Below are positions 3,287 to 20,016 of a DNA stretch of 57,621 nucleotides, one piece after another. The DNA is taken from the NCBI GenBank assembly GCA_013001755.1, contig JABDLY010000024.1, positions 1 through 57,621 of the forward strand. The letters are read 5' to 3'. Below the pieces are notes generated by a model. It was not told the origin of the DNA. It saw only the letters and a list, made by a program, of their open reading frames with translations, and searched no databases. Positions within the stretch are counted from its first letter, which is position 1; each line of letters begins with the position of its first letter. A program made the translations under genes and the position numbers. Origin of the DNA: Sphingomonadaceae bacterium. GTDB taxonomy: Bacteria > Pseudomonadota > Alphaproteobacteria > Sphingomonadales > Sphingomonadaceae.

Positions 3287-3321
3287 GGGCTCCCTCTCCG
3301 CGAACGCCGGCATTCGAACAA

Positions 3322-3335
3322 TAAGTGGTTCTACT
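3322..3335 (-). promoter_or_regulatory. Island motif copy (candidate FixJ site)
   Basis: AGTA-GAACCA-CTTA on minus strand between divergent ldt and usp. Confidence 0.5.
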
Positions 3336-3403
3336 TATGTCGCGATTGCGCCGGATGCTGCCATATTGGCGTGAGAACGAGACGGGTTTTTGGGAGAGTA
3401 GCG

Positions 3404-4210
3404 GTGAAATCAATCCTTCTGCATGTATATGAAGACCGCGAATTCGAAACACGCTTTCAGGCGGCGCTTGATCTCGCACGGACATTCAACGGCCACATCA
3501 CATGTCTGCACGCTACACCCTTCGAAGATTATCTCGCCACCGATCCGTTCATGGTGGCGGCGCTTCCGGTAGAATTCTCGACCAAGATGCAAAAGAAGCG
3601 CGACGCGCTTCAAGCGTCGATACAAGACGAGATCGAGAACGAAGACGTCTCCTGGGACTGGATCCACAAGGACGATCTGATTTCAGACGCCTTGATCCGG
3701 CATTCGGTGTTGAGCGACGTGATTGTGGTGAGCAGCGCCGTCCGCGACCAATATAAGGACGATGCGCGCGCGGTCGTCGGCAAGGTCATTACGCATGCCA
3801 AGGCCCCGGTACTTTCGATACCTTCCAAGCTGAAGCGTCTTGACCTGAAGAAACCTGCAATCGTCGCATGGAACGGCAAACCCGAAGCTGCCGCTGCGCT
3901 GCGCCAAGGACTGCCTCTGCTAAAATTCGCCTCAAGCGTGCACCTTGTATCTGTTGGCGATCGTCTCCTAGCGTATCCACCGGATAGGGCCGCCCGATAC
4001 CTGTCACGCCACGGCGTCAAGTCCGAAATCGTCTCGCGACCTATTGGCGAGAACGTCAGCTCGTCGCTTCAAGATGCGGCCAGGGAATTCTCGGCGGGTC
4101 TGCTTGTAATGGGTGGATATGGCCACTCGCGGCTGCGCGAATATTTCCTCGGGGGAGTGACGCGCGAACTGCTGGAAACCAGCCCAGTTCCGATGCTGTT
4201 TGGGCATTAG
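3404..4210 (+). CDS. Universal stress protein
   Basis: GTG start after GGGAGAG; KSILLHV, IVAWNG, LVMGGYGHSRLREYFLGGVT. Confidence 0.9.
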   Translation: MKSILLHVYEDREFETRFQAALDLARTFNGHITCLHATPFEDYLATDPFMVAALPVEFSTKMQKKRDALQASIQDEIENEDVSWDWIHKDDLISDALIRHSVLSDVIVVSSAVRDQYKDDARAVVGKVITHAKAPVLSIPSKLKRLDLKKPAIVAWNGKPEAAAALRQGLPLLKFASSVHLVSVGDRLLAYPPDRAARYLSRHGVKSEIVSRPIGENVSSSLQDAAREFSAGLLVMGGYGHSRLREYFLGGVTRELLETSPVPMLFGH

Positions 4211-4348
4211 CGGCTTATCATGCTGACGGACGATTTTCAGCCCAGGCACGCGATATTCTGCGGGTTATGGCGGCAGTTCCCAAGCGCAGCCGCGAAGCTG
4301 AAGGATGCTCGACCACCGCTGCCGTCACCGTTTCAATAGGAGGAACAA

Positions 4349-5038
4349 CTGGCCCTGCAATCTCTTGACGGAACCCGGTGTGAAAACATTCGCGTTTGGG
4401 ACCTTCCGCTCCGGCTCTTCCATTGGTTGTTGGTCATCGCCATCGCCGTCGCCTTTCTTTCATCTGAAGAAGGCAGCCCGCTTTCCGATTGGCACATCGC
4501 TTCAGGCTGGATCGTGGCGGTTCTGATCGTCTTTCGGCTAGCCTAGGGTCTTATTGGCGGCGAGCATTCCCGCTTCTCGGATTTCGTCAAGCCTTCCGAC
4601 TTCAGCCACCACATAAAAGACCTCGTTCGCGCGCGCTCCAAACCGAGCCTCGGTCATAATGCGCTTGGCGCCGTCAGTGTGTTTATTTTGCTCGCGCTGA
4701 TTGGGGGGACCGTGTGGACAGGCATAATGATCGCCGAGGACGGAGGCGATGAAGTCCATGAATTGATCGCATATGCGCTGCTGGCATTCGTGGGGCTACA
4801 TATTCTTGCCGTCATCGCTATGTCGTTTCTCACGCGGGAGAGCCTGGTGAGAGCGATGTTCACGGGCAACAAGCCCGCCGAACGCCATCCGGCAGCCCGC
4901 GATGCCCGCCCGCCAGCGAGCTCAGCGTATTTCCTGGGGGCACTCGTCGTCGCCGGAACAATTCTCGCCATTATTGCCTATGATAACGCTGCGTTTCAGA
5001 TCCGTCCGATTGATTCCGTGGAACATGACGATCGATAA
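4349..5038 (+). pseudogene. Cytochrome b (HupC/HyaC-like b-type) with CTG start and internal TAG at 4544-4546
   Basis: One frame reads IRVWDLPLRLFHWLL...WHIASGW...FRLA*GLIGGEHSRFSDF...GHNALG...VHE...LHI; AGGAGG at 4338-4343 precedes in-frame CTG. Confidence 0.8.
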
Positions 5039-5152
5039 TCCGGCGCCGGCACGCAAGAAGCAGGCATCGACGACGATGAGCAGCGCGGTTGAATACGCCT
5101 CTCCACTGATTGAGATACGCAGCCGATCGGAGGACAGGCACGCCGTTTGAGA

Positions 5153-5166
5153 TAGGGACTATTACG
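5153..5166 (-). promoter_or_regulatory. Island motif copy (candidate FixJ site)
   Basis: CGTA-ATAGTC-CCTA on minus strand, upstream of second L,D-transpeptidase. Confidence 0.55.
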
Positions 5167-5227
5167 TAATTGGTTGAGATGTTTCGTTCATGGTAATTTG
5201 CGGCCCATGAAGAAAACTCCCGGAAAC

Positions 5228-5836
5228 ATGCAAGTCACGAGACGCACGCTGGTAGCGGGCGGTCTCGGTTTAGCCGCCGGCGTTAGCTCGCTTCCGCGAT
5301 CTGCCCTCGCCAATATGATGCCCCGGCAATTGTCTCCCAGACTGGCTACGTTGGCGATGGCTGCCCTTGAACGGCATCGAGGCAGTTTTTCGGCAAGCGA
5401 CCGGATTGGCATCGCCGATTTCTCCCAGCCATCGCGGGTGCCAAGGTTCCATATTCTCGACATGGATACCGGCGAAAGCCGTTCTTTGCTGGTCGCTCAC
5501 GGGCGCGGGTCGGACCCAAGCCATAGCGGCTGGCTTCGAAGCTTTTCCAACGAGCCGGGCTCAAACGCAACATCGGCGGGCGCTTACCTGACAGCGGCGT
5601 CCTATACAGGCAGCCATGGCTCGTCACGGCGTCTGATCGGCCTGGATCCGGAGAACGATAATGCCGAGGACCGCGCCATAGTCATTCACCCGGCCTGGTA
5701 TGCAAATCCGGAAATCGTCCGGCAACAGGGCAAGCTCGGCCGTAGCGAGGGATGCTTTGCCTTTGCCGAACGCGATATCGATTTGGTGCTGAGCCAGCTT
5801 GGCGAAGGCCGGATGATATACGCCAACCGCGTTTAG
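5228..5836 (+). CDS. Murein L,D-transpeptidase catalytic domain protein (YkuD_2-like), Tat-exported
   Basis: TRRTLV twin-arginine signal; VAHGRGSD, FSNEPGS, IVIH...GRSEGCFA; start could be 5207. Confidence 0.85.
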   Translation: MQVTRRTLVAGGLGLAAGVSSLPRSALANMMPRQLSPRLATLAMAALERHRGSFSASDRIGIADFSQPSRVPRFHILDMDTGESRSLLVAHGRGSDPSHSGWLRSFSNEPGSNATSAGAYLTAASYTGSHGSSRRLIGLDPENDNAEDRAIVIHPAWYANPEIVRQQGKLGRSEGCFAFAERDIDLVLSQLGEGRMIYANRV

Positions 5837-5863
5837 GCGTGTATGCCAGGCAAAAAGCCGATC

Positions 5864-5877
5864 CGTATATTCCCGTA
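5864..5877 (+). promoter_or_regulatory. Island motif copy (candidate FixJ site)
   Basis: CGTA-TATTCC-CGTA upstream of the SpoIIAA-like gene. Confidence 0.6.
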
Positions 5878-5947
5878 AATCTGAACAAGCGCCCGGGCGC
5901 TATGGCTTCCAGCTGACACATCGATTCTTAGCCGGCTGGAGGAAACC

Positions 5948-6727
5948 ATGCTCAAATTCATTCGCACCGACGACGACGTCATTGCTTTCCGGATGACGGG
6001 GCATGTCGATAGAGCCGAGGTAGAAGCGGTGCTCGACCGTCTCGAAAAAGCGCTCGATCTGCATCGAAAGACACACATGTTTGTGGAAATCGAGGCTTTC
6101 AAGGGGTTCGATGTTTCGGCGATCACGCACGATCTGACCCGCTCGCTCAAGCTTCTCGGCAAGCTCAAGCGCTTTGGCCGCGTGGCGATTGTGAGCGATA
6201 CAAGCTGGATCCGCTGGGCAAGCAAGGTGGAGAGCGCCTTGCTTCCGTTCGTCTCCTACGAAACTTTCAAAGCCGATGAACGGGACAAGGCGCTCGCCTG
6301 GGTAAAGGGTGAACAGCGCCTGCCGCATGGCGCTGCCATCAAAAAAATCGAGACCGACAGACCGAATGTGTTCGGGTTCGAGCTGGACGGAAAAATCAGC
6401 TCGGAAGAGCTCAAGGAAATTGCCGAAGAGTTTAATTCGATCTTGGACAAGGAAGAGAAGGTCAACGTCATCGCAAGGATCAAGACTTATGACGGCCTGG
6501 AACTCGAGGGCCTGCTGGAGAGTGATTTTTGGGCAATGAAGCTTGCGGGCTACAAGAAGCTTGACCGCTATGCCGTTGTCGGTGGGCCGGAGTGGATGAA
6601 GCGATGGGGCGATCTGCTCAGTCCGCTATTCCGGGTGAACATCCAGTTCTTCGACGAGGATGAAGAAGGCCAGGCTTGGGAATGGCTCAAGGCGAAACCC
6701 AGGATAGCGGAACCTGTCATCGCCTGA
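5948..6727 (+). CDS. Tandem STAS/SEC14 (SpoIIAA-like) domain protein
   Basis: Two repeats: RVAIVSD..W...A.AWV and RYAVVGG..W...AWEWL; GGAGG SD. Confidence 0.85.
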   Translation: MLKFIRTDDDVIAFRMTGHVDRAEVEAVLDRLEKALDLHRKTHMFVEIEAFKGFDVSAITHDLTRSLKLLGKLKRFGRVAIVSDTSWIRWASKVESALLPFVSYETFKADERDKALAWVKGEQRLPHGAAIKKIETDRPNVFGFELDGKISSEELKEIAEEFNSILDKEEKVNVIARIKTYDGLELEGLLESDFWAMKLAGYKKLDRYAVVGGPEWMKRWGDLLSPLFRVNIQFFDEDEEGQAWEWLKAKPRIAEPVIA

Positions 6728-6862
6728 TTGAACTGGTGTTGCCGGTGAACATGCCGCTGATCCTGACGCTCTTCCTTCTATCGAGCGCAAGTGACCGATT
6801 GCCGGTTCATCGTTTGAGCGGCAACCGCTTTGGCGGGCGATGCGGCCGCTGCGGTCCAAATG

Positions 6863-6876
6863 TGTAGATTCACCTA
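6863..6876 (+). promoter_or_regulatory. Island motif copy (candidate FixJ site)
   Basis: TGTA-GATTCA-CCTA upstream of fixL. Confidence 0.5.
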
Positions 6877-6931
6877 TTTGCGATTGTGTAAGGTGCCGCC
6901 TAGCGCATGTTGGAAAGGTGCTGGTCCATAG

Positions 6932-8101
6932 ATGAATATCGACACGAACGACTTGAAAGATGGCGACCGGAAACTGCCGATTACGCTTTCGAGCGGCGAA
7001 CATCTGCGCGCTATCATCGACACCGTCCCCGATGCGATGGTGGTCATCGATACCGAGGGTCGAATCCTCGCCTTTAGCGCAGGGGCGGAAAAAATGTTTG
7101 GCTATAGCGAGGCCGAACTTCTCGGTGAAAATGTCAGCACGTTAATGCCATCGCCGGATCGGGAGAGACATGACGGCTACATCAGCGCCTATCTCGAGAC
7201 AGGTATCAAGCGGATTATCGGAATCGGGCGGCTGACAACGGCCCGGCGGCGCAGCGGCGGCACGTTCCCCATCGATCTGTCGATTGGCGAAGCGCGGATC
7301 GGCAAAGACCGCGTTTTCGCCGGCTTCATTCGTGATCTCACGGAAAGCGAAAAAACCGAACAGCGGCTCCATGGTTTGCAGGCGGAGCTAGCGCATGTAT
7401 CACGTATCTCGGCCATGGGAACGCTCGCGACCTCCATAGCGCATGAGCTGAACCAGCCGCTCACGGCGATCGTCAATTATGTCGAGACCTGCCGCGATAT
7501 GCTTGATGATCACAGTCCTGAAACCATCGCCACTCTCAAGGACGCGCTAAGCGAATGCGCGAGCGAAACCATGCGCGCCGGCCAGATTGTCCGGCGGCTC
7601 CGCGATTTCATCTCGCGCGGAGAAATGGAGCGCCAGGTTGTCAGCCTCTCAAGGATCGTAAACGAAGCGAGCGCTCTGGCGCTGGTCAATGGCGACAGCA
7701 CAGTGGAGGTCGAAGTGGACCTTGAGCGAGATGTCGACCTGGTGCTCGCGGATCGAATTCAAATTCAGCAAGTCATCCTGAACCTGCTCCGCAATGCAGT
7801 CGAGGCGATGGAAAATTCACGCGTCAGGCGAATTCAGATCGTTAGCGAGCGCGCGGCCAATGGGTTCGTCCAGGTCACAATTGCAGACAGCGGGCCCGGT
7901 CTCGACGCAAAGGTTGCCGAGCGCCTGTTCCATCCCTTCGTCAGTACAAAGGCGAGCGGGATGGGCTTGGGTCTCTCGATTTGCCATACGATCGTCAACG
8001 GACATGGCGGCAAAATCTGGGCCGAACCCTCCCCTTTGGGAGGCACCAGTTTCCACTTCACGCTAATCGACGCTGAGCAGGGATCCGATGACGCAGAATA
8101 G
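6932..8101 (+). CDS. fixL: Heme-PAS oxygen sensor histidine kinase, soluble
   Basis: LMPSPDRERHDGYI...KRIIGIGR heme-PAS signature; AHELNQPL H-box; N, G1, G2 boxes. Confidence 0.93.
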   Translation: MNIDTNDLKDGDRKLPITLSSGEHLRAIIDTVPDAMVVIDTEGRILAFSAGAEKMFGYSEAELLGENVSTLMPSPDRERHDGYISAYLETGIKRIIGIGRLTTARRRSGGTFPIDLSIGEARIGKDRVFAGFIRDLTESEKTEQRLHGLQAELAHVSRISAMGTLATSIAHELNQPLTAIVNYVETCRDMLDDHSPETIATLKDALSECASETMRAGQIVRRLRDFISRGEMERQVVSLSRIVNEASALALVNGDSTVEVEVDLERDVDLVLADRIQIQQVILNLLRNAVEAMENSRVRRIQIVSERAANGFVQVTIADSGPGLDAKVAERLFHPFVSTKASGMGLGLSICHTIVNGHGGKIWAEPSPLGGTSFHFTLIDAEQGSDDAE

Positions 8102-8723
8102 CAACAATGTTTACCTCGTCGATGACGAAGACGCGATCAGGCGTTCGGCCAGCTTCATGCTCCGAACGTCGGGTTATGCGGTGGATGTATTCGAGTCGGG
8201 TGTGGCCTTCTTGAAGAATGTAAAGAATTTGGAACCCGGCTGCGTCTTGCTCGATATCCGAATGCCCGAAATGGACGGCCTCGATGTGCAAGAGGCACTC
8301 CAAGATCGTGGCATTCCTTTTCCAGTCATCGTGATGACCGGCCATGGCGACGTCGATGTCGCCGTCCGGGCGATGAAGGCCGGCGCGGTCGATTTCATAG
8401 AGAAGCCTTTTGCCAAGGAAGTGCTTCTCAGCGCTATCGAAGAAGGCTGCGCGCGGCTCATGGAGACCGGTCGCAAGCACAAGCGCGCCGATGAGGCGAA
8501 CCTTCGCATCCAGGCGCTGACGCCCCGCGAACAGGACGTATTGCACGGTCTGGTGAAAGGTCATCCAAACAAGACCATTGCCTATGATCTTGGCATCAGC
8601 CCGAGAACGGTGGAGATTCACCGGGCTAACCTGATGAGCAAACTCGAAGTGAACAGCCTTTCAGATGCCCTCCGCATTGCATTCGCGGCCGGCCTGGATG
8701 AGCAGATCGAGACCGACGGCTAA
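8088..8723 (+). CDS. fixJ: Response regulator FixJ
   Basis: Receiver (VDDE, LLDIRMP, FIEKPF) plus LuxR HTH SPRTVEIHRANLM; overlaps fixL. Confidence 0.93.
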   Translation: MTQNSNNVYLVDDEDAIRRSASFMLRTSGYAVDVFESGVAFLKNVKNLEPGCVLLDIRMPEMDGLDVQEALQDRGIPFPVIVMTGHGDVDVAVRAMKAGAVDFIEKPFAKEVLLSAIEEGCARLMETGRKHKRADEANLRIQALTPREQDVLHGLVKGHPNKTIAYDLGISPRTVEIHRANLMSKLEVNSLSDALRIAFAAGLDEQIETDG

Positions 8724-8804
8724 CCGCATACCGGCGCCGCGATCAGAAACCTGAAATTTCGGAATTTTCACGGGATTGTAATGCCACAGCCCGGCATATC
8801 GCCT

Positions 8805-9146
8805 TCATTCAGGCGTGTCGGGAAGATCGATAGTGCATTCCTGGATTGCTCTGGAAACGAACTGCCCGGCTTCCAGCGCCTGCATTTCGTTCAGATCTTC
8901 GCGCAGCCGCAAGGCCGTCCTTTCGTCTCCAGCAATTTTCGCGATCACGAAGCTGTGCGATTCCGGCGAAAGCCGTTGCGCCTGTTCGTCGAGACAGGCG
9001 CAAAGTTCGGCGGTCATGTCACCGTTTGAATTGCATGCAGCGGCGAAATCGCCCGGTCCCGGATCGCTGCTGTTGCAGGAGGCTGCAAAGAAAGTCGAAG
9101 CGATAAGGGCCGTGGAGCGGACGCAAGACGCGAAAATGAGACGCAT
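8805..9146 (-). CDS. Hypothetical lipoprotein
   Basis: FAASC lipobox-like signal; C...CAC...C pattern; SD-like GAAAGG. Confidence 0.55.
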   Translation of the reverse strand: MRLIFASCVRSTALIASTFFAASCNSSDPGPGDFAAACNSNGDMTAELCACLDEQAQRLSPESHSFVIAKIAGDERTALRLREDLNEMQALEAGQFVSRAIQECTIDLPDTPE

Positions 9147-9323
9147 GATCTGCCTTTCTTTCGAATTGGAAACCAGAATGGGCCGAAGGCCATGGTGCCG
9201 CCTATCCGTAATATTCCTGACCGCGCGCCGTTCAATTCCGCTAAAATGCACAGCTCAATCTTTGAACGTGAGCCCTCAGCCCTTCCGCCGGAAGCGGAGC
9301 GAGTTCCCGCAATCATTCTCGGG

Positions 9324-9689
9324 CTAATTCAGATCTTGAACCGTCGCGATCCGAAAAGGGAGCTGACTGCCGTCGGGCTCCGTCAGGGTGATATATTCGC
9401 CGGGGAGTATGACGTGCCGGTCCAACAGGAAAATTGTTTCGTCATCATCTTCGCCGACACGATAGGAAAACGCCCAGCCTTTCGGAGTCTTTATGACATA
9501 GCCTGACATGTCGCGTTCGTTCGGCCAGAAGCGTCGAACCCGCGCCATGGCTGTGTTCTCTTTCACCGCCTCTTCGTCGATCAACCCATCGTCGTTGACC
9601 GGAAGACGGATGACATAGGCTCGACTGGCCGACCCCCCCGGGAATTCAGGCGTTCGGGCAAGTTCCAAGCGAATAGATTTCCAACTCAT
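9324..9689 (-). CDS. Conserved hypothetical protein (IRLELARTPEFPGGS type)
   Basis: GGGGAGGAG SD; coherent 121-aa ORF divergent from usp. Confidence 0.75.
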   Translation of the reverse strand: MSWKSIRLELARTPEFPGGSASRAYVIRLPVNDDGLIDEEAVKENTAMARVRRFWPNERDMSGYVIKTPKGWAFSYRVGEDDDETIFLLDRHVILPGEYITLTEPDGSQLPFRIATVQDLN

Positions 9690-9748
9690 GAATCCAATTC
9701 TCCTCCCCACTTTTACGCTGTTTTCGTTGGGCGAGGCGGCGTTGAAAA

Positions 9749-9788
9749 TACGTGGATTTACGGAGAAACATATCCGTAAATCTGCGTA
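9749..9788. promoter_or_regulatory. Mirror-image pair of island motifs in a divergent promoter
   Basis: TACG-N6-TACG (9749-9762) and CGTA-N6-CGTA (9775-9788). Confidence 0.65.
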
Positions 9789-9858
9789 AATACGCACGTC
9801 TCCCTGTCGCTATTTTGCATGGCTGCACAGCACAATCTCGTCCTCCGGGAGACATTCG

Positions 9859-10671
9859 ATGAAATCCGTTCTGCTTCACATCCATGACGATGAAGGTCAG
9901 GAATCGCGCTTTCAGGCAGCGACCGATATCGTGCGTGCCTTCGACGGACATCTGACCTGCGTTCAAGCCGCGCCCTATGAGTATCCCATTTTCGGCGACC
10001 CATTCGGTGGCGCCTATGTTCTTCCCACCGTACTTGCCGAAGTGCGTCGCGAGCAGAAGGAAACACAGAAGCGGTTGGAGGAGAGGCTCGATCATGCGGG
10101 TGTCAATTGGAATTGGACAAAGTATGACGGACCAGCTGCCAAGATGCTGATCGACCACTCGAGACTCGCTGATCTTATCGTATTGAGCCACGTTCCCGAC
10201 ACCGCGAAAGGCCATGATAGCTGGCCGCCATTGACCGCTGATGTCGCCGTCCATTCGCGCGCGCCGGTACTTGCTGTCCCGGCAGACACCAAGAATTTCC
10301 CCTGCGACGGGAAAGCCATCATTGCATGGAACGGTTCTTTCGAAGCGAGCGAAGCGGTAAAGGCCGCATTGCCGCTACTCAGAATGGCGTCATCCCTCAC
10401 AATTGTATCTGTAACCGAAAGCGAGCTGGTGTACCCTGCAACCGACGCGAGCATTTACCTCGCTCGGCACGGCATTGCGTCGGATCTGGTCAACCAGCCG
10501 GCCAAAGATCGGTCTGTATCGGACGCGCTGCGGACAGCCATCCAATCACACGGCGGCGACTATCTTGTCATGGGCGCATACGGCCACTCCCGTATCCGTG
10601 AAAAGATACTCGGCGGCGTGACGCGAGACCTGCTCCGCAATTCATCCGTGCCACTGCTGATGGCGCACTAG
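9859..10671 (+). CDS. Universal stress protein
   Basis: MKSVLLHIH, IIAWNGS, LVMGAYGHSRIREKILGGVT. Confidence 0.92.
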   Translation: MKSVLLHIHDDEGQESRFQAATDIVRAFDGHLTCVQAAPYEYPIFGDPFGGAYVLPTVLAEVRREQKETQKRLEERLDHAGVNWNWTKYDGPAAKMLIDHSRLADLIVLSHVPDTAKGHDSWPPLTADVAVHSRAPVLAVPADTKNFPCDGKAIIAWNGSFEASEAVKAALPLLRMASSLTIVSVTESELVYPATDASIYLARHGIASDLVNQPAKDRSVSDALRTAIQSHGGDYLVMGAYGHSRIREKILGGVTRDLLRNSSVPLLMAH

Positions 10672-10703
10672 ACCCACTGAATCTCGGCACATTGGAGAAC
10701 AGC

Positions 10704-11534
10704 ATGGCAAAAAACCCGACAATCCTCGTCGCGACCGACCTGAGCGCACGATGCGATCGCGCCATCGATCGCGCCATGGTGATTGCCGAGTCGCAGTCGG
10801 CGCGATTGCTGATCGTTCATGTAATCGAAAAGGGAGAACTTGGAAAAGATTTGGCCTATGAGCAGGATTTGAAGGCTGAAATCGCCAGGGACTTTCCAAG
10901 CGCCACGGTGGCCGTCGAAATCATTGTCGGCCGAGGCTCCGTTCCCAAGGAGATCGCCGAAATCGCTGAACGCGAAAAATGTTCGCTCATCGTCACTGGC
11001 GTCGCACGCATGAACAGTCTGCGCGATTTCATATTGGGCACACTCGTTTCGGCACTTGTCCGCCAATCGGCGATCCCGGTACTGATTGTAAAAAAGCGAC
11101 CGTTGCGTCCATATCAGAAGATGTTGGCCGCCACCGATTTCTCGTCATGTTCGTTGCACGCGTTGCGGGTTGCAGCCGACCAATTTCCCGAACTGCCCAT
11201 TCAGCTCGAACACGCATTCCAGGTCCCCTACGGCGGGATATTGAAATCGGATCAAGTAGCAAAAGATACGCGCGCCGAGGTCAATCGCGACATGAAATCC
11301 TTCCTGAAAGAGATCGGCGACGAAGACGGATTGCTCGATCGGCTGGAAACCCACATCGCCTATGGCCAGATTACCTCTGTGGTCAGCGAGCGGCTGTCCG
11401 CCTCGGGAACCGATTTATTCGTCATTGGCACGCATGGGAAAAGCGGGTTCGCCCATGCATCGATCGGAAGCATCGCGGCCGATCTTATGTCATGGGTACC
11501 CGTCGATACGCTGGTCGTTCGGGAAACTCGCTAG
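10704..11534 (+). CDS. Universal stress protein (UspE-like tandem)
   Basis: ILVATDLS and LAATDFS repeats; IGTHGKSG...IGS. Confidence 0.9.
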   Translation: MAKNPTILVATDLSARCDRAIDRAMVIAESQSARLLIVHVIEKGELGKDLAYEQDLKAEIARDFPSATVAVEIIVGRGSVPKEIAEIAEREKCSLIVTGVARMNSLRDFILGTLVSALVRQSAIPVLIVKKRPLRPYQKMLAATDFSSCSLHALRVAADQFPELPIQLEHAFQVPYGGILKSDQVAKDTRAEVNRDMKSFLKEIGDEDGLLDRLETHIAYGQITSVVSERLSASGTDLFVIGTHGKSGFAHASIGSIAADLMSWVPVDTLVVRETR

Positions 11535-11546
11535 AAACAGGGTTGG

Positions 11547-11864
11547 ATGAGGTTGGAAGACGGAAAGTTCTCCGATTCCTACCGGTGGGCAAATTTCCGT
11601 TCTTGCAATCGTGCTGGCGCAAACCGCTTGCATGACTATGACAATGTCATTGTCGTTTACAAGATCGACCGCGGTTACTGGGGATATGAGATGACGCGAC
11701 TGATGGGCGTCTACGGCGACCCTATGATTCAGTCCATGGGCCTAGCTGGACGGATTCAAGAGCAAATAGATTTTGCTTGGAATATGCTTATCGGCGGACC
11801 AATTTTCGCCACTGCCGCGTATTTTGTTGGTCAGTGGATATATCAAGGGTTCAAAGAGAAATAG
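11547..11864 (+). other. Hypothetical ORF or 3' gene remnant with C-terminal TM segment
   Basis: AT-richer; hydrophobic helix ending WIYQGFK; no clear start context. Confidence 0.3.
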
Positions 11865-11896
11865 GTTTTTGGTTCAATCAAGTACACAATCGCCTA

Positions 11897-12070
11897 AATT
11901 TGGGTGTAGGAAAAATCATCGGTCCGGTGCTCGGATTGTTGATCGGCGGAGTGATCGCTGCGCCGATCGGTGCGCTTTTTGCCAAATGTCTCGATCCGCG
12001 CCTGATGTTTACATTTGTCGGTTTAGCGATAACTTTAACAAGCGGACTGGCTATTCTCAAAATCACCTGA
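11897..12070 (+). pseudogene. C-terminal remnant of TauE/SafE-like permease
   Basis: LGLLIGGVIAAPIGALFAK...FVGLAITLTS resembles the last helices of TauE proteins; 5' part missing. Confidence 0.55.
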
Positions 12071-12126
12071 CTGTATTTTCGTCATTGACCGTGTCGCCAA
12101 GATGTTCATCGAAAACCCGGTTTCTA

Positions 12127-12693
12127 TCAATTGCCGGACATCAGGAATTTGCGCCAGTCGATCTGCGTAAAACCAATGAGCAAGGCTATCATCGCCAATT
12201 GTATGGCGAGCCCCACCGGGCTCGTAAAATTTTCCCGGAATGCCTGGCCTATGCTGGTCTGTGCAATCCTGATGGCGGTCATCCCGTAGATTGAGTAGGA
12301 AACAAGGCGGCCCATGAAGAACGCCAGCGTGAAACGCAGCAAGCGGATCTTGGTGAGGCCCGCAGCCTCGAACAATTGCGCCGAAGGAACGGGTGACAGC
12401 GCGAAGAGTCCAAGCGCCAGATAGGTAACTTTCCTTTTCTGTTCGATGAGCTCGCCCGCGGCGGAAACGTTGCGTTTTGTCTTTTCGGGCACATAGCCTG
12501 CGAATAATCGGAACGCGTGTGCGAGAAGAAAGCGGCCGAGCGCAGCAGCACTTGCCGACGTTATGACGAGCGCCGGCAAGGGTATCGCGCTGTTCATACC
12601 GTAAAGAACGATGACCGACCATGTGGGAGGACCAAATGCCGGCATCATATTTATTCCCAATATGACAGCGAACAGGATCAGATAATCGGTCAG
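12127..12693 (-). CDS. Hypothetical membrane protein, probable CTG start
   Basis: Frame reads (L)TDYLILFAVILGINMMPAFGPPTWS; no ATG/GTG/TTG upstream of the CTG before an in-frame TAA; several TM helices. Confidence 0.7.
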   Translation of the reverse strand: MTDYLILFAVILGINMMPAFGPPTWSVIVLYGMNSAIPLPALVITSASAAALGRFLLAHAFRLFAGYVPEKTKRNVSAAGELIEQKRKVTYLALGLFALSPVPSAQLFEAAGLTKIRLLRFTLAFFMGRLVSYSIYGMTAIRIAQTSIGQAFRENFTSPVGLAIQLAMIALLIGFTQIDWRKFLMSGN

Positions 12694-12765
12694 TGTCCGG
12701 CCCCATCTTCTACGGCAGAAACAATCAATCCGCCACGCGCGTTAACGTGACAATGCCGAAGTTCT

Positions 12766-13797
12766 TCACGGAACCGCCCGTGCCGGCTCTGCCGTCGTGG
12801 CGAGCTTCTCGGTCGAAACTTCGTTTTGCGGGCGGCCGGCCTCGAATGCGCTCAGATTGGCAATCGTGGTTTCGGCGATATTGGTGAGGGCCTCATGGGT
12901 GAAGAATCCCTGATGCCCTGTGATCAGGACGTTGGGAAAGGTCAGCAGACGCGCGAATATATCGTCCTGAATGACGTGAGCGGAAAGATCGCGAAAGAAC
13001 AGGTCGCCCTCTTCCTCGTAGACATCGAGACCGAGGCTGCCGATGCAGCCCGTCTTGAGCCCGGCTATCACGGCGCGCGTATCGAGCACCGCGCCTCGGC
13101 TGGTGTTGATGATCATTACGCCCGGCTGCATCCGCGCGATGCGCTCCCCGTCGATCAGATGGTAGGTGTCGGGGGTCAGCGGACAATGGAGAGTGATGAT
13201 CTTGGCGGCGGCGGCAAGGTCGTCGAGCGCGACATAATCGACGCTGTTCGCCGCCAACCCGGCATCGGGCGACGGATCGTGCGCGATCACATGGCAGCCG
13301 AAGCCTGAAAGGATACGCGCCACAACCGATCCGATATTGCCCGTGCCGACGATACCGACCGTCTTGGAGTGGAGATCGAATCCGAGAAGCCCATCGAGCG
13401 CGAAATTGCCCTCGCGTACACGGTTGAAGGCCCGGTGCGTATTGCGCGCCAGCGACAGCATCAGCGCGACGGCATGCTCGGCGACTGCGTAGGGAGAATA
13501 TTCGGGAACCCGGACGACGGGAATTTCCAGCTGCGCGGCGGCTTCGAGATCGACATTGTTGAAGCCTGCACACCGCATTGCGACGAACCGCACACCGAGA
13601 TCGGCCAGCTGGGCGAACACATCCGCGTCGAGATCGTCGGACACGAAGGCGCAGACGGCCTCATGACCCTTGGCGAGGGCGGCGGTTTCGCACGACAGCC
13701 GGGCTTCGAGAAAGGACAGCGCATGTCTGCCGACCGCATTGGCGGCGGTCAGATAGGCCCGGTCGTAGCTTTTGGTGCTGAAAATCGCGGTCTTGAC
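12766..13797 (-). CDS. ldhA: D-lactate dehydrogenase (2-hydroxyacid dehydrogenase), GTC at expected start
   Basis: (V)KTAIFSTKSYD N-terminus in frame; RCAGFNNVD, GTGNIG, INTSRG, LDVYEEE, TGHQGF intact. Confidence 0.85.
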   Translation of the reverse strand, partial: VKTAIFSTKSYDRAYLTAANAVGRHALSFLEARLSCETAALAKGHEAVCAFVSDDLDADVFAQLADLGVRFVAMRCAGFNNVDLEAAAQLEIPVVRVPEYSPYAVAEHAVALMLSLARNTHRAFNRVREGNFALDGLLGFDLHSKTVGIVGTGNIGSVVARILSGFGCHVIAHDPSPDAGLAANSVDYVALDDLAAAAKIITLHCPLTPDTYHLIDGERIARMQPGVMIINTSRGAVLDTRAVIAGLKTGCIGSLGLDVYEEEGDLFFRDLSAHVIQDDIFARLLTFPNVLITGHQGFFTHEALTNIAETTIANLSAFEAGRPQNEVSTEKLATTAEPARAVP

Positions 13798-13854
13798 GGC
13801 ACTTCTCCCATTTCTCCCGACTGCATCGCGACGGCGGCGGCCCTGCCGACCAGC

Positions 13855-14463
13855 CTAGCACATGCCGCCGCCACCGCCCGCTGGCCGTTCGATGCTCGGC
13901 TCAAGATCGGCGATCACGCGGCGCGCGTCGAAGGCGCGTTCTTCGTCGGCCGGCGCCGGTCCCGTGTGCGTGGTGATTTCGGCATGCGCTTCGAATTCCT
14001 CGATCGTGCTGACCCTGACCCGTTCCGTCCAGAAAGGATTACCCCGTTCGGGGTGCCAGGTCCGCCATCCGAGCCCCTCGCGATAATAGCGCCAATGCGG
14101 CCGCCAATAGACGTATTCGCTGCCGAACCAAGGCCGATAGAGCGGATCGGGATGGACGTAGGTCCGCGCCTCGCGTTCGGTTAGCCGGTCGAGGATCAGA
14201 AACCAGTCATAACCCTGTTCGAGTGTCAGTTCGGCGGCGCGATACATAAGATAGCCTTCAACCCGGTCGCGCGAGGTCAGGCAATTGCCCGAAAAACTGA
14301 CGCGGAACCGGTTGTCCGCGAGCTGAGTCTCCGAATAGCCGCCCGAGACCCGCTGGCCGGGTATATCGGGCTGATACGGCGTCGCCGACACGCAGCCTGC
14401 CAGAGCGAGGGCGAAGGCGGTCAGAATTGCCAGTCCGCCGCCCATTTTTTGTCGGTCGTTCAT
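13855..14463 (-). CDS. Lipoprotein (CC0125/CC1285-like)
   Basis: LAGC lipobox; TPYQP...GYSE...RVSFSGN...YRAAELTL..GYDWF. Confidence 0.8.
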   Translation of the reverse strand: MNDRQKMGGGLAILTAFALALAGCVSATPYQPDIPGQRVSGGYSETQLADNRFRVSFSGNCLTSRDRVEGYLMYRAAELTLEQGYDWFLILDRLTEREARTYVHPDPLYRPWFGSEYVYWRPHWRYYREGLGWRTWHPERGNPFWTERVRVSTIEEFEAHAEITTHTGPAPADEERAFDARRVIADLEPSIERPAGGGGGMC

Positions 14464-14527
14464 CGCTACTTCCCCGATTGTGGTGTTCGCGAGCGAGGAT
14501 AGAGCCGGCCGCCGCCGCCGCCATATC

Positions 14528-14541
14528 AGTAAGCTTACCTA
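14528..14541 (+). promoter_or_regulatory. Island motif copy (candidate FixJ site)
   Basis: AGTA-AGCTTA-CCTA between divergent lipoprotein and DUF2267 genes. Confidence 0.5.
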
Positions 14542-14633
14542 GAGACCCGCGCGCAGCGCTTTGTTTCAAACTCCAAGGCGGTGGCCCATAGCGGCGGAGA
14601 ATTTGCGCCACCGATTTGCAACGGGAGAAGACC

Positions 14634-15059
14634 ATGAGTGCGCTCGGCCTGAAAATCATCGACAAGGCGGTCCAGGACACGAATATCTGGCTTGATGAAT
14701 TGATGGACAAGCTCGACTGGGAAGACAAACAGCGCGCCTATCGCCTGCTGCGTTCGACCCTTCATGTGCTGCGTGACCGGCTACAGATGAACGAGGCGGC
14801 CGATCTCGCGGCGCAATTGCCGACGCTGATTCGCGGGATCTATTATGAAGGCTGGCAACCGAACCGCCCGCCGACCCATCACAAGCATGAGTTGAATTTC
14901 ATCGCGGCGATCGAAGCGGCATTCATCGAGGATCCCAATGCCGATCCCGGGGTGACTGCCAGAGCGGCGCTCGCGGTTATCGCCGACCATGTCTCCGAAG
15001 GCGAGATCGACGACGTCAAGAGCGGCCTGCCGCCCGAAATCAAGGCGTTGTGGCCCTGA
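14634..15059 (+). CDS. DUF2267 domain protein
   Basis: TNIWL..L...AYRLLRSTLHVLRDRL...AAQLPTLIRGIYYEGW; GGGAG SD. Confidence 0.85.
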   Translation: MSALGLKIIDKAVQDTNIWLDELMDKLDWEDKQRAYRLLRSTLHVLRDRLQMNEAADLAAQLPTLIRGIYYEGWQPNRPPTHHKHELNFIAAIEAAFIEDPNADPGVTARAALAVIADHVSEGEIDDVKSGLPPEIKALWP

Positions 15060-15115
15060 GAACCGATCGAGGGCCGACCGAAATATCGCGGATGTGACGG
15101 GCGAAGGGAGGCATC

Positions 15116-15259
15116 ATGACAATGGCTGCGCAGGCGGCGACAGGCCCGGAAAGCTTCGCCCCCAAAGGCGGCTTCAGGGGCACCGATCTGCACAAGATCT
15201 ATGAAATGGGCGAGACCCAGGTCCATGCGCTGCGCGGCGCCGCCTCGGCATCGCCGTAG
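15116..15259 (+). pseudogene. N-terminal stub of LolD/MacB-type ABC ATPase
   Basis: GGGAGG SD; MTM...DLHKIYEMGETQVHALRG then loss of similarity at about 15239, before Walker A. Confidence 0.75.
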
Positions 15260-15669
15260 CGGGCGGGAATCGGGAAACAATAGCGCGCATCGGCCAGCGC
15301 ATGAGTCGCGAAACCGCCATCGCGCGTGAAGCCGGTGAATAACGGGTCGTTGCACAGATTCTCGCGGTCCGACCGGCAATAGGGGCATTTGCCGCAGCTA
15401 TGGCCGAGCCAAGGGATGCCGACCCGGTCGCCGATCGCGAATCCCTCGGCGCCTTCGCCGACCATACTGACCCGGCCGACGATCTCGTGCCCCGGAACGA
15501 TCGGCAGCTTGCCCTGGATATCTCCATCGACAATATGCAAATCGGTGCGGCAAACGCCGCAGGCGCCGACCTCGACGAGAATTTCTCGCTTGCCGGGATC
15601 GCGTATATCGCGTTCGATCAGGCGCAGCGGCGAGCCCGGCTCGGCAAATTCCATCGCGTGAATGCGCAT
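15235..15669 (-). pseudogene. Truncated zinc-dependent alcohol dehydrogenase
   Basis: CGVCRTDLH, VPGHE, CGKCPYC...ENLC; breaks after EAAP, Rossmann domain missing. Confidence 0.85.
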
Positions 15670-15710
15670 GGCGTCACCTATGCTTCACGGGTTGCCCCGC
15701 ACCGGTACGA

Positions 15711-16331
15711 TCATGCCGTTCGATCCTTCGCGATCAACGTTTTTTCAGCGATCATCAGCGTTGAATCGTCGGGATCGTGCCGCAGATCGAAACCCATCTC
15801 GCCCTCTAGCTGGAGCGCGGCGCGATCGTCCCAGCTCTCGATCGACCGAATCTTTCGCAATCCCTTGGCCTGGGCATAGCGGATGAGATGGCCGAGCAGC
15901 GTCCAGCTGACGCCCTGATGCTTGCGATCCTGGCGCGTGCAGAGCGCAAATTCGCCGATCTCGAAATCCGCGTCGGCGCTCAGCATGGCGGTGGCGATGA
16001 TATTGCTGTTTTCGTCTAAAGCGAGGAAGTCGATGCTCTGCAGATCATCGTCGCGCGCCATCGCCCTCAGCCGCTCGCGATCGACTTCGATCAAGCCGGT
16101 CAGAAAACGGCGATAGATATCCTCCGAACTGACATGCAGGAAAAAGTCGGCGAGCTTTTCCTCGTCGCCGGGTTTGGCCGGACGGACATGGAAAGTGACG
16201 CCGCTGCGTGTCGTCAGATCGGCACGCCATTCGGCAGTCGCTTCGTCGTTGGACAGGCCGCGGACCGATCCAGGGGTTGCGGACTGATCAGCTGAAGCGG
16301 GTGGCGATTCGGTGTCGGCGGGGCTGGTCAT
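15711..16331 (-). CDS. GNAT family N-acetyltransferase
   Basis: VRPAKPGDE..L.DFF.HVS.EDIYRRF, GEFA...KHQGVSWTLL; resembles acyl-CoA-ligase-associated GNAT domain. Confidence 0.8.
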   Translation of the reverse strand: MTSPADTESPPASADQSATPGSVRGLSNDEATAEWRADLTTRSGVTFHVRPAKPGDEEKLADFFLHVSSEDIYRRFLTGLIEVDRERLRAMARDDDLQSIDFLALDENSNIIATAMLSADADFEIGEFALCTRQDRKHQGVSWTLLGHLIRYAQAKGLRKIRSIESWDDRAALQLEGEMGFDLRHDPDDSTLMIAEKTLIAKDRTA

Positions 16332-16389
16332 GACGGGTCCTTTCCTTGCTCGGGCGAAGAATAGGAAGGAAGGCGCCGCCAGCGCGATC

Positions 16390-16403
16390 CGTAATTGCCC
16401 CTA
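16390..16403 (+). promoter_or_regulatory. Island motif copy (candidate FixJ site)
   Basis: CGTA-ATTGCC-CCTA upstream of GNAT gene. Confidence 0.55.
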
Positions 16404-16584
16404 GAGGCTATCGTCTCCTTCTCCGCGGAAAAGACATCGGAACTCCGTCTAGGCCGCCTCGCCCAGCGCGCGTACGCGCTTCAGCCAACGGCGGCGATGG
16501 CCGGCCCGAGACCCGGGTCGCCGTCGATGATGGCGACGCATGACATGAGGCGATGGATTGCACCGCCGTTTTCTGTTATAAATC

Positions 16585-16598
16585 CGTACCTTCCTATA
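16585..16598 (+). promoter_or_regulatory. Degenerate island motif copy
   Basis: CGTA-CCTTCC-TATA upstream of second fixJ. Confidence 0.4.
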
Positions 16599-16693
16599 TC
16601 CGTTCGCCGTCCGTTTGCCGGCCTGACGCTGTGAGCGGCGGGTGGAAGGCGTCAACGGATTCGATCAGCTGATCGATGCAGGAGGCCAAGGCG

Positions 16694-17320
16694 ATGGAGC
16701 AACGCCATAAGATCTATCTCGTCGACGACGATGAGGCGGTCCGCCGATCGGCCGGCTTCCTGTTGCGCACCACGGGCTATGATGTCGCGACCTACACCTC
16801 GGGCGTCGAGATGCTGGAGGAGGCCAGTGCGCTTGAGCCCGGTTGCGTTCTCCTTGATATCCGCATGCCCGAGATGGACGGCCTCGAGGTTCAGGCCGAA
16901 CTCAAGACGCGCGGCATTCCCCTCCCGGTCGTGGTGATGACCGGCAGTGATGATATCGATATCGCGATACGGGCGATGAAGGCAGGCGCGGTCGATTTCA
17001 TCGAAAAGCCTTTCGAGAAATCGGTGCTGCTCGACGCGATCGAGGAGAGTTGCGCAAGGCTCGACCGCAACAGCCGCCGATCGGCGCGCGCCGACGAGGC
17101 GCGGGTGCGGCTCGACGCGCTGACCCCGCGCGAGCGGGATGTGCTAAGGGGCCTGGTACGTGGCCATCCCACCAAGGCGATCGCCGACGATCTCGGCCTC
17201 AGCCCGCGTACCGTCGAGATCCACCGCGCGAACGTGATGCGCAATTTGGACGTGCAAAGCCTGTCCGAAGCGCTGCGCCTCGCCTTCGCCGCGGGATTCG
17301 GCGAGGACGCAGGCACCTGA
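16694..17320 (+). CDS. fixJ: Second FixJ-type response regulator (orphan paralog)
   Basis: Highly similar to 8088-8723 (LEPGCVLLDIRMPEMDGL, SPRTVEIHRAN); GGAGG SD. Confidence 0.9.
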   Translation: MEQRHKIYLVDDDEAVRRSAGFLLRTTGYDVATYTSGVEMLEEASALEPGCVLLDIRMPEMDGLEVQAELKTRGIPLPVVVMTGSDDIDIAIRAMKAGAVDFIEKPFEKSVLLDAIEESCARLDRNSRRSARADEARVRLDALTPRERDVLRGLVRGHPTKAIADDLGLSPRTVEIHRANVMRNLDVQSLSEALRLAFAAGFGEDAGT

Positions 17321-17508
17321 TCGGCAGTCTTGGCAGGTCTGCTGACGTAGATCCTCGATCTTCGCGACGCGAAAGGCAACCGAACCAGCTCAGGCCGGAT
17401 GATCCTCCATCTCAACGTTACACAGCGCGCTTCCCGCGACCTCCCAGTATCCTATCCGATAACCGCGCCTTGGTCGGCCTGCGCAAATACGGGGTGCCAT
17501 GGCGGCTC

Positions 17509-17522
17509 CGTAATTCTGCGTA
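17509..17522 (+). promoter_or_regulatory. Island motif copy (candidate FixJ site)
   Basis: CGTA-ATTCTG-CGTA upstream of usp. Confidence 0.65.
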
Positions 17523-17595
17523 CTGACCGGCGCCACCGGCTCGCTAGTCTGACCGGTTCCCGAGGGCATCGCCCGCATCGGCCAGGGGAAGAGCC

Positions 17596-18408
17596 ATGAA
17601 GTCCGTTTTGCTCCATATCCACCGCGACCATGGCCAGGAGGCACGGTTGCAAGCGGCGCTCGACATCGTGCGCACGTTCGATGGTCATCTGACCTGCCTG
17701 CAGGCGACACCGTTCGAAACCTATATTATCGGCGATCCGTTCGGCGGGGTCTACGCGCTGCCGCAGATGATCGCCGAAATCCGCAAGGGGGAAGAGGCCG
17801 AACGTCGGACGATCGAGGACCGGTTGAAGCGCGAGGGAGTGAGCTGGGACTGGCTTTCCTATGACGGTTCGGCCGCCAAGGTGCTCGCCGATAACAGCTG
17901 GCTGGCGGACCTCGCAATCGTCAGCGTGCTGACGGACAAATCCGAGTCGGGCCGTACGCCGCCGATCGCCGCCGATGTCGTGCTTCATGCGCGTGCGCCG
18001 GTGCTCGTGGTGCCCGACGAAGCCACGGGCTTCGACTGTTCGGCTGGCGCGATGATCGCCTGGAACGGGTCACGCGAATCTTCGCAGGCGCTGCGCGCAG
18101 CGCTGCCTTTGCTGCGGATGGCGGACGCGGTCACGGTGATCTGCGTGGCCGAAGAGCAAAGCAAGGGCTTGCCGCCGACCGCCGCCGCCACCTTTCTCTC
18201 GCGCCACGGCGTTGCCTGCAATCTCGTCGAACAGCCGCGCGAGCACCGATCGGTCGCCGATACGCTGCGCGCCGCGATCTCGGCCGGCGGGCCGGGCTAT
18301 CTGGTGATGGGTGCCTTTGGCCATTCGCGGCTGCGCGAGCGCGTGCTCGGCGGCGTGACCCACGATCTTCTGGCGAACCCACCGAAACCGCTGTTGCTCG
18401 CCCATTGA
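17596..18408 (+). CDS. Universal stress protein, close paralog of 9859-10671
   Basis: Same length and shared MKSVLLHIH...FDGHLTC...GDPFGG. Confidence 0.92.
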   Translation: MKSVLLHIHRDHGQEARLQAALDIVRTFDGHLTCLQATPFETYIIGDPFGGVYALPQMIAEIRKGEEAERRTIEDRLKREGVSWDWLSYDGSAAKVLADNSWLADLAIVSVLTDKSESGRTPPIAADVVLHARAPVLVVPDEATGFDCSAGAMIAWNGSRESSQALRAALPLLRMADAVTVICVAEEQSKGLPPTAAATFLSRHGVACNLVEQPREHRSVADTLRAAISAGGPGYLVMGAFGHSRLRERVLGGVTHDLLANPPKPLLLAH

Positions 18409-18539
18409 AAACGAAGCGTTGTCATGCGTGGATACGGTCATTCTCGACAGCGCGAGTTTATCCTCGGCGGCACAACGCTCGATATGCTCGGCAACAGCCC
18501 TGTGCCCCTGCTGCTCGGTCACTGATCGCGGCGAGGCTC

Positions 18540-18553
18540 CGTAGCATTGCGTA
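18540..18553 (+). promoter_or_regulatory. Island motif copy (candidate FixJ site)
   Basis: CGTA-GCATTG-CGTA upstream of hsp20. Confidence 0.65.
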
Positions 18554-18637: not shown

Positions 18638-19153
18638 ATGACAACGAAATCTTCGACCAGCTCCGAACCCATGCTGCCGTCGGCCGATACGGGCGAGGGT
18701 CGCGACCGGCCGCTGGGCTGGTTCCGCGACGAATTCGACCGGTTTGTGGGCGAGCTGCGCCAACCGCATTGGTCGCCTTTCAACTGGTCGCCCGGCAATT
18801 TTGCATTGCAGGGGCTGATGCCGCTGCCGGCGATTGACATGCGCGAGGATGACAAGACCTATCGGCTGAGCGCTGAGCTGCCGGGGCTCGACGAGGAGGA
18901 TATCGAGGTCAACGTCGCCGACGGCATGCTCACCTTGTCGGGCGAGAAGCGCGATGAACGCGACGAGAAGGACAAGGGCTTCATGCTGCGCGAACGGCGC
19001 TACGGCTCGTTCGAACGGCGCGTTACGCTCCCCTCCGATGCCGATCCAGACAATGTGACAGCGAAATTCGATCACGGCGTTCTGACGATTACCGTGGCCA
19101 AGGACGAGAAGGCCGCGGATCGCGTACGTAAGATAGCGATCGAGGCGGGCTGA
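18638..19153 (+). CDS. Hsp20/alpha-crystallin small heat shock protein
   Basis: AELPG...[10 protein letters not shown]...[14 protein letters not shown]...[12 protein letters not shown]; AAGGAGGT SD. Confidence 0.93.
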
Positions 19154-19940: not shown

Positions 19941-20016
19941 TGGTGCCCGGGGACAGAATCGAACTGCCGACACCACGATTTTCAGTCGTGTGCTCTACCA
20001 ACTGAGCTACCCGGGC
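19941..20016 (-). tRNA. tRNA-Phe(GAA)
   Basis: GCCCGGGTAGCTCAGTTGGTAGAGC...CTGAAAA...GTTCGATTC...GGGCACCA, 76 nt with encoded CCA. Confidence 0.97.

Follow-up and report, generated by a model that had tools for sequence, protein, structure and literature searches.

The closest described counterparts of the locus considered here are the FixLJ-FixK systems of Sinorhizobium meliloti, Bradyrhizobium diazoefficiens and Caulobacter crescentus. In the available text of PMC7078487 FixJ acts both directly and via fixK, with no large direct set of targets listed. The available sections of PMC4999443 list FixLJ only for Rhizobiales and Caulobacterales, with predicted FixJ sites before four genes in the former and before fixK only in the latter; fixK is the sole conserved target listed there, and the missing common FixJ consensus is said to complicate target finding. 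The predicted FixK regulon includes Hsp20 and a zinc alcohol dehydrogenase, and uspA is under FNR (PMC2908626). Here we describe an island, at positions 1-19,900 of a 57,621-bp contig of a Sphingomonadaceae bacterium (JABDLY010000024.1, assembly GCA_013001755.1; the entire contig is referred to as the window), that encodes FixL and two FixJ proteins and in which about ten promoters carry a FixJ-type box. The island resembles the FixLJ-FixK systems in its heme-PAS FixL and FixJ, in the same 16-bp site, in a FixJ box before a fixK-like gene and in similar downstream gene families (Hsp20, zinc alcohol dehydrogenase, uspA). It differs from them in having some ten boxed promoters and only two FNR-type boxes, in a FixJ that belongs to a separate, mostly sphingomonad clade and in a FixL without the N-terminal membrane part. 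We propose, with a probability of roughly 0.8, that the island FixL-FixJ directly activates about ten stress promoters at low oxygen in a DosR-like manner, largely replacing the FixK relay.

The DosR/DevR system of Mycobacterium tuberculosis combines heme-binding kinases with GAF sensors and DosR, a NarL-family direct activator that uses an 18-20-bp site different from the island box. This gas-responsive two-component system governs about 48 genes, including those for six universal stress proteins (USPs) and hspX (available text of PMC2914252 and PMC4973870). The island boxes precede usp2, usp3-4, usp5 and hsp20, whose direct control by FixJ is predicted from sequence; the island belongs to a different phylum and its sensor is a PAS-type FixL, not a GAF protein such as DosS or DosT. 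The apparent likeness to DosR is one of analogy in wiring, not of membership. FxkR of Rhizobium etli and R. leguminosarum is an OmpR-type regulator. Its regulon (GTTACA-N4-GTTACA) is also linked to a FixL, hFixL, and has candidate sites before 10 operons in the available part of PMC4999443; the motif, however, is different, and the island regulators are FixJ-type. Within the same order, the FnrN regulon of Sphingopyxis granuli TFA includes uspA under a class II box (PMC7713065), and the tRNA-linked element ICE3 of this strain carries usp, hsp and fixLJ genes (bioRxiv 10.64898/2025.12.11.693706); unlike the boxed island genes, its uspA has an Fnr box, and the available portions of these two sources report neither FixJ sites nor a FixJ regulon. 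No description of a large direct FixJ regulon in sphingomonads was found in the full-text literature, a scope outside which subscription papers and unseen supplements lie. The box and FixLJ are already known; the proposed large direct regulon would be the new part.

An initial annotation of the window had described the element as a 10-bp direct repeat and listed 12 copies, all of which are present where it placed them. The spacing holds, but the unit is longer than the annotated 14-mer (NGTA-N6-CBTA): a T stands two bases upstream of it in 12/12 island sites, compared with 11/68 matches elsewhere in the genome, and the unit is therefore 16 bp (T-M-M-G-T-A-N4-Y-N-C-B-T-A). The ideal half-site, TACGTA, reads the same on both strands, so that the element can equally be described as an imperfect inverted repeat or as a 10-bp direct repeat; for TACGTA-N4-TACGTA the two descriptions coincide. 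A pure direct repeat was rejected because the conserved outer T and A, together with orientation-independent use, favour the imperfect palindrome. The strict pattern TNNGTA-N6-CBTA has 10 matches in the window, all intergenic, within 3322-18553 and left of a tRNA-Phe gene, against a mean of 0.43 (maximum 2) in 100 shuffles. The check proposed with the initial annotation, enrichment over shuffled DNA and the rest of the genome, was borne out: the 14-mer occurs 10 times in 1-19,900, with 0.55 copies expected from the rest of the genome and a mean of 0.38 (maximum 4) after 1000 shuffles of the island's non-gene DNA only, and its half-sites at 12 other spacings yield 0-3 copies each. It should be emphasized, however, that the pattern was derived from island sites, and independent tests, in relatives and of promoter geometry, therefore weigh more.

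All 13 sites checked are intergenic, as had been claimed, in an island of which non-gene DNA makes up 24%, and the box ends 35-94 nt from a start codon (55-84 nt for the likely target). The annotation had noticed no copies right of the tRNA; the loose 14-mer does occur there, at 26165 and 56650, but both copies are inside open reading frames (ORFs) and lack the T. Its copy list also needs amendment when the boxes are scored with a matrix trained on sphingomonad relatives only, window excluded, from which all bit scores of window boxes given here derive. Of two copies regarded as weaker, that at 16583 is indeed weak (5.9 bits) but that at 9205 is strong (19.5 bits); the copy at 6861, before fixL, is weak (4.4 bits), and a thirteenth site, at 1242 before the FixK-like gene, had been missed. 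An FNR/FixK box as the island-wide signal was rejected, there being just 2 sites with at most one mismatch in 20 kb. A genome-wide regulon in this assembly was also set aside: the 74 hits of at least 12 bits outside the contig, unassigned to promoters, are treated as mostly background. Beyond the island, the top-scoring matrix hit (17.4 bits; contig C140, position 511) lies just upstream of a 16S rRNA-like gene and may be chance.

The FixJ site of S. meliloti fixK is given in the available text of PMC4999443 as TAAGTAATTTCCCTTA, and the 16-bp pattern fits this sequence exactly; an 18-bp imperfect palindrome is also described there. The likeness to the Sinorhizobium FixJ site seen by the initial annotation thus stands, although the closest published site is this 16-bp sequence and not the decamer from systematic evolution of ligands by exponential enrichment to which it had been compared. 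Conversely, the relatives-only matrix, applied to 40.6 kb of the S. meliloti locus, gave 5 hits of at least 9 bits and found the S. meliloti site (11.2 bits) 69 nt before the gene that occupies the fixK position, as named from synteny. FixJ1 (8088..8723, + strand) scores 253.7 bits against the NCBIfam FixJ model (cut-off 255) and matches PDB 5xso at E 7e-54; its recognition helix matches that of S. meliloti FixJ (helix-turn-helix segments NKTIAYDLGISPRTVEIHRANLM versus NKSIAYDLDISPRTVEVHRANVM). The orphan paralogue FixJ2 (16676..17320, +), 67% identical to FixJ1, scores 240 bits against the same cut-off of 255 and shows changes of PNK to PTK just before the recognition helix and of TGHG to TGSD in the receiver; it could act as a modulator or bind less strongly. 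Among named sequences, the island FixJ is closest to Sphingomonas and Sphingobium records. FixL (6932..8101, +), a soluble heme-PAS histidine kinase, scores 461 bits against an NCBIfam cut-off of 850, with model positions 1-120 absent, and matches PDB FixL heme domains at E 1e-42; it has a phospho-acceptor histidine, and its H80, R100 and H171 line up with residues of S. meliloti FixL. In 73/75 FixL proteins of the clade the histidine that serves as heme ligand and the distal arginine are kept. From these comparisons the boxes appear to be of the FixJ type and are likely to be bound by phosphorylated FixJ.

It could be argued that FixLJ is a mere neighbour and that the boxes serve some other regulator, for example a NarL-family protein missing from the assembly or a hybrid sensor kinase ending in a FixJ-like DNA-binding part. 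The assembly (2.49 Mb in 244 contigs) is 90.5% complete and the island runs off the left end of its contig, which leaves room for such a protein. The only two GerE/LuxR domains found in this assembly, however, are those of FixJ1 and FixJ2, both encoded in the island, while across genomes the box tracks the FixJ clade and precedes fixK-like genes, a known FixJ target. We regard a different reader as very improbable.

FixJ was detected at E <1e-62 in 121/401 family genomes, that of the window included. The comparison covered 94 loci, each at most about 20 kb long (80 chosen for contig room and 14 others), which were divided by identity to FixJ1, not by motif, into group B (at least 55%, n=77) and group A (below, n=17). 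A quick tree places the 77 B rows and both window FixJ in one branch (support 99) that additionally holds a protein of strain SYK-6 and three long-branch A rows. The strict pattern occurs 87 times at spacing 6 in B loci, versus 5-16 times at six other spacings. De novo expectation-maximization, run without the window, gave TccGtA-nnnt-TcCgtA for 106 B upstream regions (log-likelihood 619 versus 53-63 for shuffled regions) and TTGA-N6-TCAA for 38 A regions (266 versus 52-61). The relatives-only matrix finds 10 island sites of at least 12 bits, against 0.61 expected, and one right of the tRNA. With a matrix from the window's 12 sites and a threshold of at least 10 bits, boxes were found in B loci upstream of usp (41/64), hsp20 (13/17), hypA (20/25), fixL (15/77) and fixJ (0/80); the DNA upstream of fixJ lies in fixL. 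The hypA count represents 25 homologues near clade fixLJ, and the gene is a good marker of the predicted regulon. A plasmid of the cultured Sphingomonas sp. MM-1, which has this clade, carries boxes close to hsp20. Further boxed genes in B loci, from naive ORF calling in 24/43 cluster representatives, encode cytochrome bd subunit I, a COX1-family oxidase, PhaC, and BON, flavodoxin-like and host-attachment proteins. In other bacteria, cyd, cco and phbC belong to the targets of FnrN/FixK (available text of PMC4999443). In A loci, usp has a FixJ box in 0/6 cases and an FNR box (up to two mismatches) in 6/6, and FixJ boxes are located at crp/fixK and at a ykuD pair. This divergent L,D-transpeptidase pair shares a FixJ box even in FixK-type clusters (12/15 upstream regions, A loci) and is a possible direct FixJ target tied to cell-wall remodelling, one not encountered in the literature consulted.

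The geometry of these promoters is also informative. Among 81 sense-oriented boxes a TA starts exactly 23 nt after the box in 37 and at 22 in 8, with none at 17-21. Taking the TA at spacer 23 as the start of the -10 element, the box would extend from about -51 to -36 with its centre near -43, a predicted placement that is the class II activator position. In the available text of PMC7713065 the S. granuli Fnr boxes occupy the class II position, the uspA box being at -41.5. Within the island, a TA- or CA-type hexamer is found at spacer 22-24 toward the gene for the boxes at 3322, 5862, 6861, 9205, 9773, 14526, 16388, 17507 and 18538. A second alternative is that FixJ binds these sites but does not activate at low oxygen, either because unphosphorylated FixJ represses or because the kinase answers nitric oxide (NO) or carbon monoxide. 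Indeed a box over the -35 region could block polymerase, the nif genes of R. palustris are repressed by unphosphorylated FixJ (available text of PMC13327599), and genes of S. granuli TFA ICE3, an element with fixL/fixJ and usp in its soft core, are responsive to NO and to further stresses (available text of bioRxiv 10.64898/2025.12.11.693706). This alternative, however, fits poorly with a -10-like hexamer at fixed spacing and a box that replaces the -35 element, which is the class II layout of the S. granuli Fnr boxes at -41.5, with the activating FNR/FixK boxes that the same gene families carry in other genomes, and with the retention in FixL of the distal arginine and proximal histidine. Binding without low-oxygen activation seems to us improbable.

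The relationship between the two box types was explored on usp genes, with the window-trained matrix for FixJ boxes and up to one mismatch for FNR boxes; of the roughly 280 genomes that lack a B-type FixJ, 160 were searched and 66 of these have a homologous usp, and 58/77 matches were analysed. Beside B fixLJ, usp has a FixJ box in 41/60 cases and an FNR box in 0/60; for usp genes of B genomes that lie on a different contig or over 50 kb from fixLJ, the figures are 15/40 and 14/40, and in genomes without B FixJ they are 3/58 and 30/58. Both boxes occur together in only 2/164 usp upstream regions. As for the three exceptions without B FixJ, the first has a FixJ 3 kb away that falls just under the threshold (E 8e-62), and in the other two usp is divergent from crp (with a 44% FixJ in the genome) or a 50% FixJ is present on another contig. 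A FastTree phylogeny of 167 USPs requires 6 changes of box type, at least 4 of them forced by well-supported branches, in a count that omitted 54 rows carrying both box types or none; usp3 and usp5 of the window share a supported branch with seven FNR-box genes. Similarly, the SpoIIAA-like genes of congeners (46-51% identical where aligned) have an FNR-like box, in contrast to the 20.6-bit FixJ box of the window copy. Judged by these predicted sites, the same gene families across the bacterial family have one box type or the other, FixJ or FNR/FixK, and seldom the two together, with several switches.

What is observed in the island comprises the boxes, their intergenic position and the constant distance from box to -10-like hexamer, together with an intact heme-PAS FixL and two FixJ proteins that match S. 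meliloti FixJ in the recognition helix. In the mechanism that we propose, oxygen would leave the FixL heme, the kinase would be switched on and FixJ1 would be phosphorylated, steps established for rhizobia and Caulobacter. A FixJ dimer would then occupy the box, one C-terminal domain per half-site, and, centred near -43 and overlapping the -35 region, would recruit sigma-70 polymerase in class II fashion in either orientation. Predicted targets are usp2, usp3-4, usp5, hsp20, the SpoIIAA-like gene, hypA, two lipoprotein genes, gnat-adh and the ykuD genes, while a small relay from FixJ through the FixK-like gene to usp1, via its FNR box, would be kept. The FixJ assignment and the large direct regulon suggested by the initial annotation are supported, at the level of sequence, by enrichment, conservation, geometry and co-occurrence. 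One could suppose instead that the boxes are copies produced by promoter duplication or island co-inheritance and are largely non-functional here, as the broken genes of the island and the similar boxes of the usp3 and usp5 paralogues might suggest; the 12 sites, however, have no common flank beyond the 16 bp, the predicted targets come from unrelated families, the usp tree needs 4 or more changes of box type and the spacing to the -10 is fixed in relatives, and inert copies are therefore an extremely improbable explanation.

Several observations weigh against direct activation by FixJ or limit its reach. No clear -10 is found at spacer 22-24 for the boxes at 1242, 5153, 9749 and 16583 or on the DUF2267 side of 14526, the S. 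meliloti site has no TA at spacers 20-27, and the fixL and fixJ2 sites are weak (4.4 and 5.9 bits). There is no qualifying box within about 10 kb in 17/77 B loci, and on a plasmid of Sphingobium sp. SYK-6 clade fixLJ is located in a copper-resistance cluster whose neighbouring promoters are without clear boxes. The strict box-plus-TA pattern gave 149 hits in 40 B genomes versus 46 in 40 others, with a reversed control slightly higher in B genomes (192 versus 160), indicating that the regulon is modest in most genomes; the sampled genomes are related, so p-values overstate. Finally, at 90.5% completeness of the assembly another box reader could be missing, and, as several island genes are broken, part of the regulon may be decaying.

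The canonical relay is predicted to survive for one or two promoters, because a box at 1242 precedes the FixK-like gene and an FNR-type box (55..68, no strand assigned; one mismatch to TTGAT-N4-ATCAA) is present at usp1 (129..947, +), which is likely FixK/FnrN-controlled and groups with the FNR-box usp genes of relatives. The box at 1242..1257 (+) scores only 5.9 bits but belongs to a block, 1242-1261, kept upstream of crp in 7/7 aligned relatives. The gene that it precedes (1319..1963, +) encodes a Crp/Fnr-family regulator (Pfam) with FixK as best NCBIfam hit (91 bits, cut-off 300), and is 48-52% identical to crp beside fixLJ in relatives. A cysteine-rich Fnr-type protein encoded elsewhere in this assembly could read the usp1 box. 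The second FNR/FixK-type box (2139..2152, no strand assigned) has no clear target, is similarly placed beside ykuD1 in congeners and stands between convergent gene ends; a small RNA or gene that escaped notice may be under its control. With two FNR-type boxes (55 and 2139) against 10 FixJ boxes of at least 12 bits, the FNR majority of a canonical cascade is not seen. The autoregulation of fixL put forward in the initial annotation may exist but would be weak, given the 4.4-bit box (6861..6876, +; TAGCGC at spacer 24) and the mere 15/77 related fixL genes with a box of at least 10 bits upstream.

Among the remaining genes, assigned by Pfam unless stated, ykuD1 (2402..3313, -), an L,D-transpeptidase, and usp2 (3404..4210, +; start codon chosen) diverge from a box at 3322..3337 (-; 13.1 bits). 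The box at 5153..5168 (-; 15.8 bits) precedes ykuD2 (5228..5836, +; YkuD_2), and that at 5862..5877 (+; 20.6 bits, TATGGC at spacer 23) the SpoIIAA-like (STAS/SEC14) gene (5948..6727, +). Downstream of fixJ1, a 113-aa lipoprotein-like ORF (8805..9146, -), without a family in ORF calling and profile searches, is preceded by the box at 9205..9220 (+; CATTCT at spacer 24 leftward); TAAAAT stands 21 nt right of this box (9205-9250), facing the hypA 3' end, and is a possible antisense promoter. The conserved 121-aa protein encoded by hypA (9324..9689, -) has no Pfam or NCBIfam hit, and its box (9749..9764, -; 15.6 bits) adjoins that of usp3-usp4 (9773..9788, +; 19.1 bits, TATTTT at spacer 22); usp4 (10704..11534, +) is likely co-transcribed with usp3 (9859..10671, +) across a 32-nt gap. 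A box at 14526..14541 (+; 12.6 bits, TATCCT at spacer 24 leftward) separates the gene of a CC0125/CC1285-family lipoprotein (13855..14463, -; NCBIfam and Pfam), followed by a D-2-hydroxyacid dehydrogenase gene, from that of a DUF2267 protein (14635..15059, +; start approximate). The GNAT acetyltransferase gene, gnat (15711..16331, -), followed by the truncated alcohol dehydrogenase gene adh, has a box at 16388..16403 (+; 13.4 bits, TATTCT at spacer 24 leftward), and fixJ2 the weak box at 16583..16598 (+). The last two boxes precede usp5 (17596..18408, +), at 17507..17522 (+; 18.0 bits, TAGTCT at spacer 22), and the small heat-shock protein gene hsp20 (18638..19153, +), at 18538..18553 (+; 21.0 bits, TAATTT at spacer 23).

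The island thus contains five usp genes, a Crp/Fnr regulator, two ykuD genes, the SpoIIAA-like gene, fixL-fixJ1 and fixJ2 (Pfam and NCBIfam), and further holds gnat, adh, DUF2267, hsp20 and lipoprotein genes. Its left end is truncated by the contig end and its right border is a tRNA-Phe gene (19941..20016, -), from which DNA to the right forms long syntenic blocks in congeners and DNA to the left is patchy, with some match in 17/17 congeners. No att duplicate of the tRNA-Phe 3' end was found in this assembly. An assembly chimera was rejected, as every one of 30 bins along 1-20,000 is covered in the independent runs X2 and X3; one X1 contig spans 11,568-17,118 across the step in GC content, and no single piece spans the whole island. 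By sequence comparison it looks like a mosaic, in which crp, ykuD, DUF2267, adh and the SpoIIAA-like gene closely resemble those of the congeners' FixK-type cluster and fixLJ comes from the B clade. One congener (20026-31161 of its contig) has, at a distance of about 2.3 kb from the same tRNA-Phe, a FixLJ-FixK cluster that belongs to a different clade and bears FNR boxes, and the site can therefore carry either wiring. Some island genes are broken: an in-frame TAG interrupts a cytochrome b561-like gene (4340-5038), and at 15116-15669 the truncated alcohol dehydrogenase gene (-) overlaps an N-terminal remnant (+), which by sequence likeness looks like that of an ABC-transporter ATPase; the overlap suggests a deletion junction. 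A fusion-like ORF adjoining the tRNA 3' end (19230-19740) has no Pfam or NCBIfam hit; its N-terminus is presumably aminoglycoside-phosphotransferase-like and its C-terminus that of a serine recombinase, and the C-terminal part has an 88% match in a congener, adjoining the same tRNA.

Taken across the family, these comparisons make it reasonably probable, at a lower confidence than for the island itself, that a distinct FixJ clade, present in about 30% of sampled family genomes (121/401), directly runs a DosR-like dormancy programme. This clade would have repeatedly captured stress, oxidase, heme and polyhydroxybutyrate genes from FNR/FixK by a class II box swap at the same promoter position, and would provide a one-step, heme-sensed low-oxygen circuit that travels on islands and plasmids and operates independently of the iron-sulphur sensor of the host. 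Some 100 natural sites, set at a constant distance from the -10 element, offer a testable FixJ consensus and promoter architecture, and may supply a graded promoter set for FixJ-based optogenetic tools such as the light-dependent YF1/FixJ reporter pDusk of E. coli, which uses the FixK2 promoter (available text of PMC9594775). The near-exclusive swap of FixJ and FNR/FixK boxes on homologous genes would represent a clean natural case of a two-tier cascade collapsing into one. The findings also suggest that sphingomonads employed for bioremediation have a stress programme resembling that of DosR.

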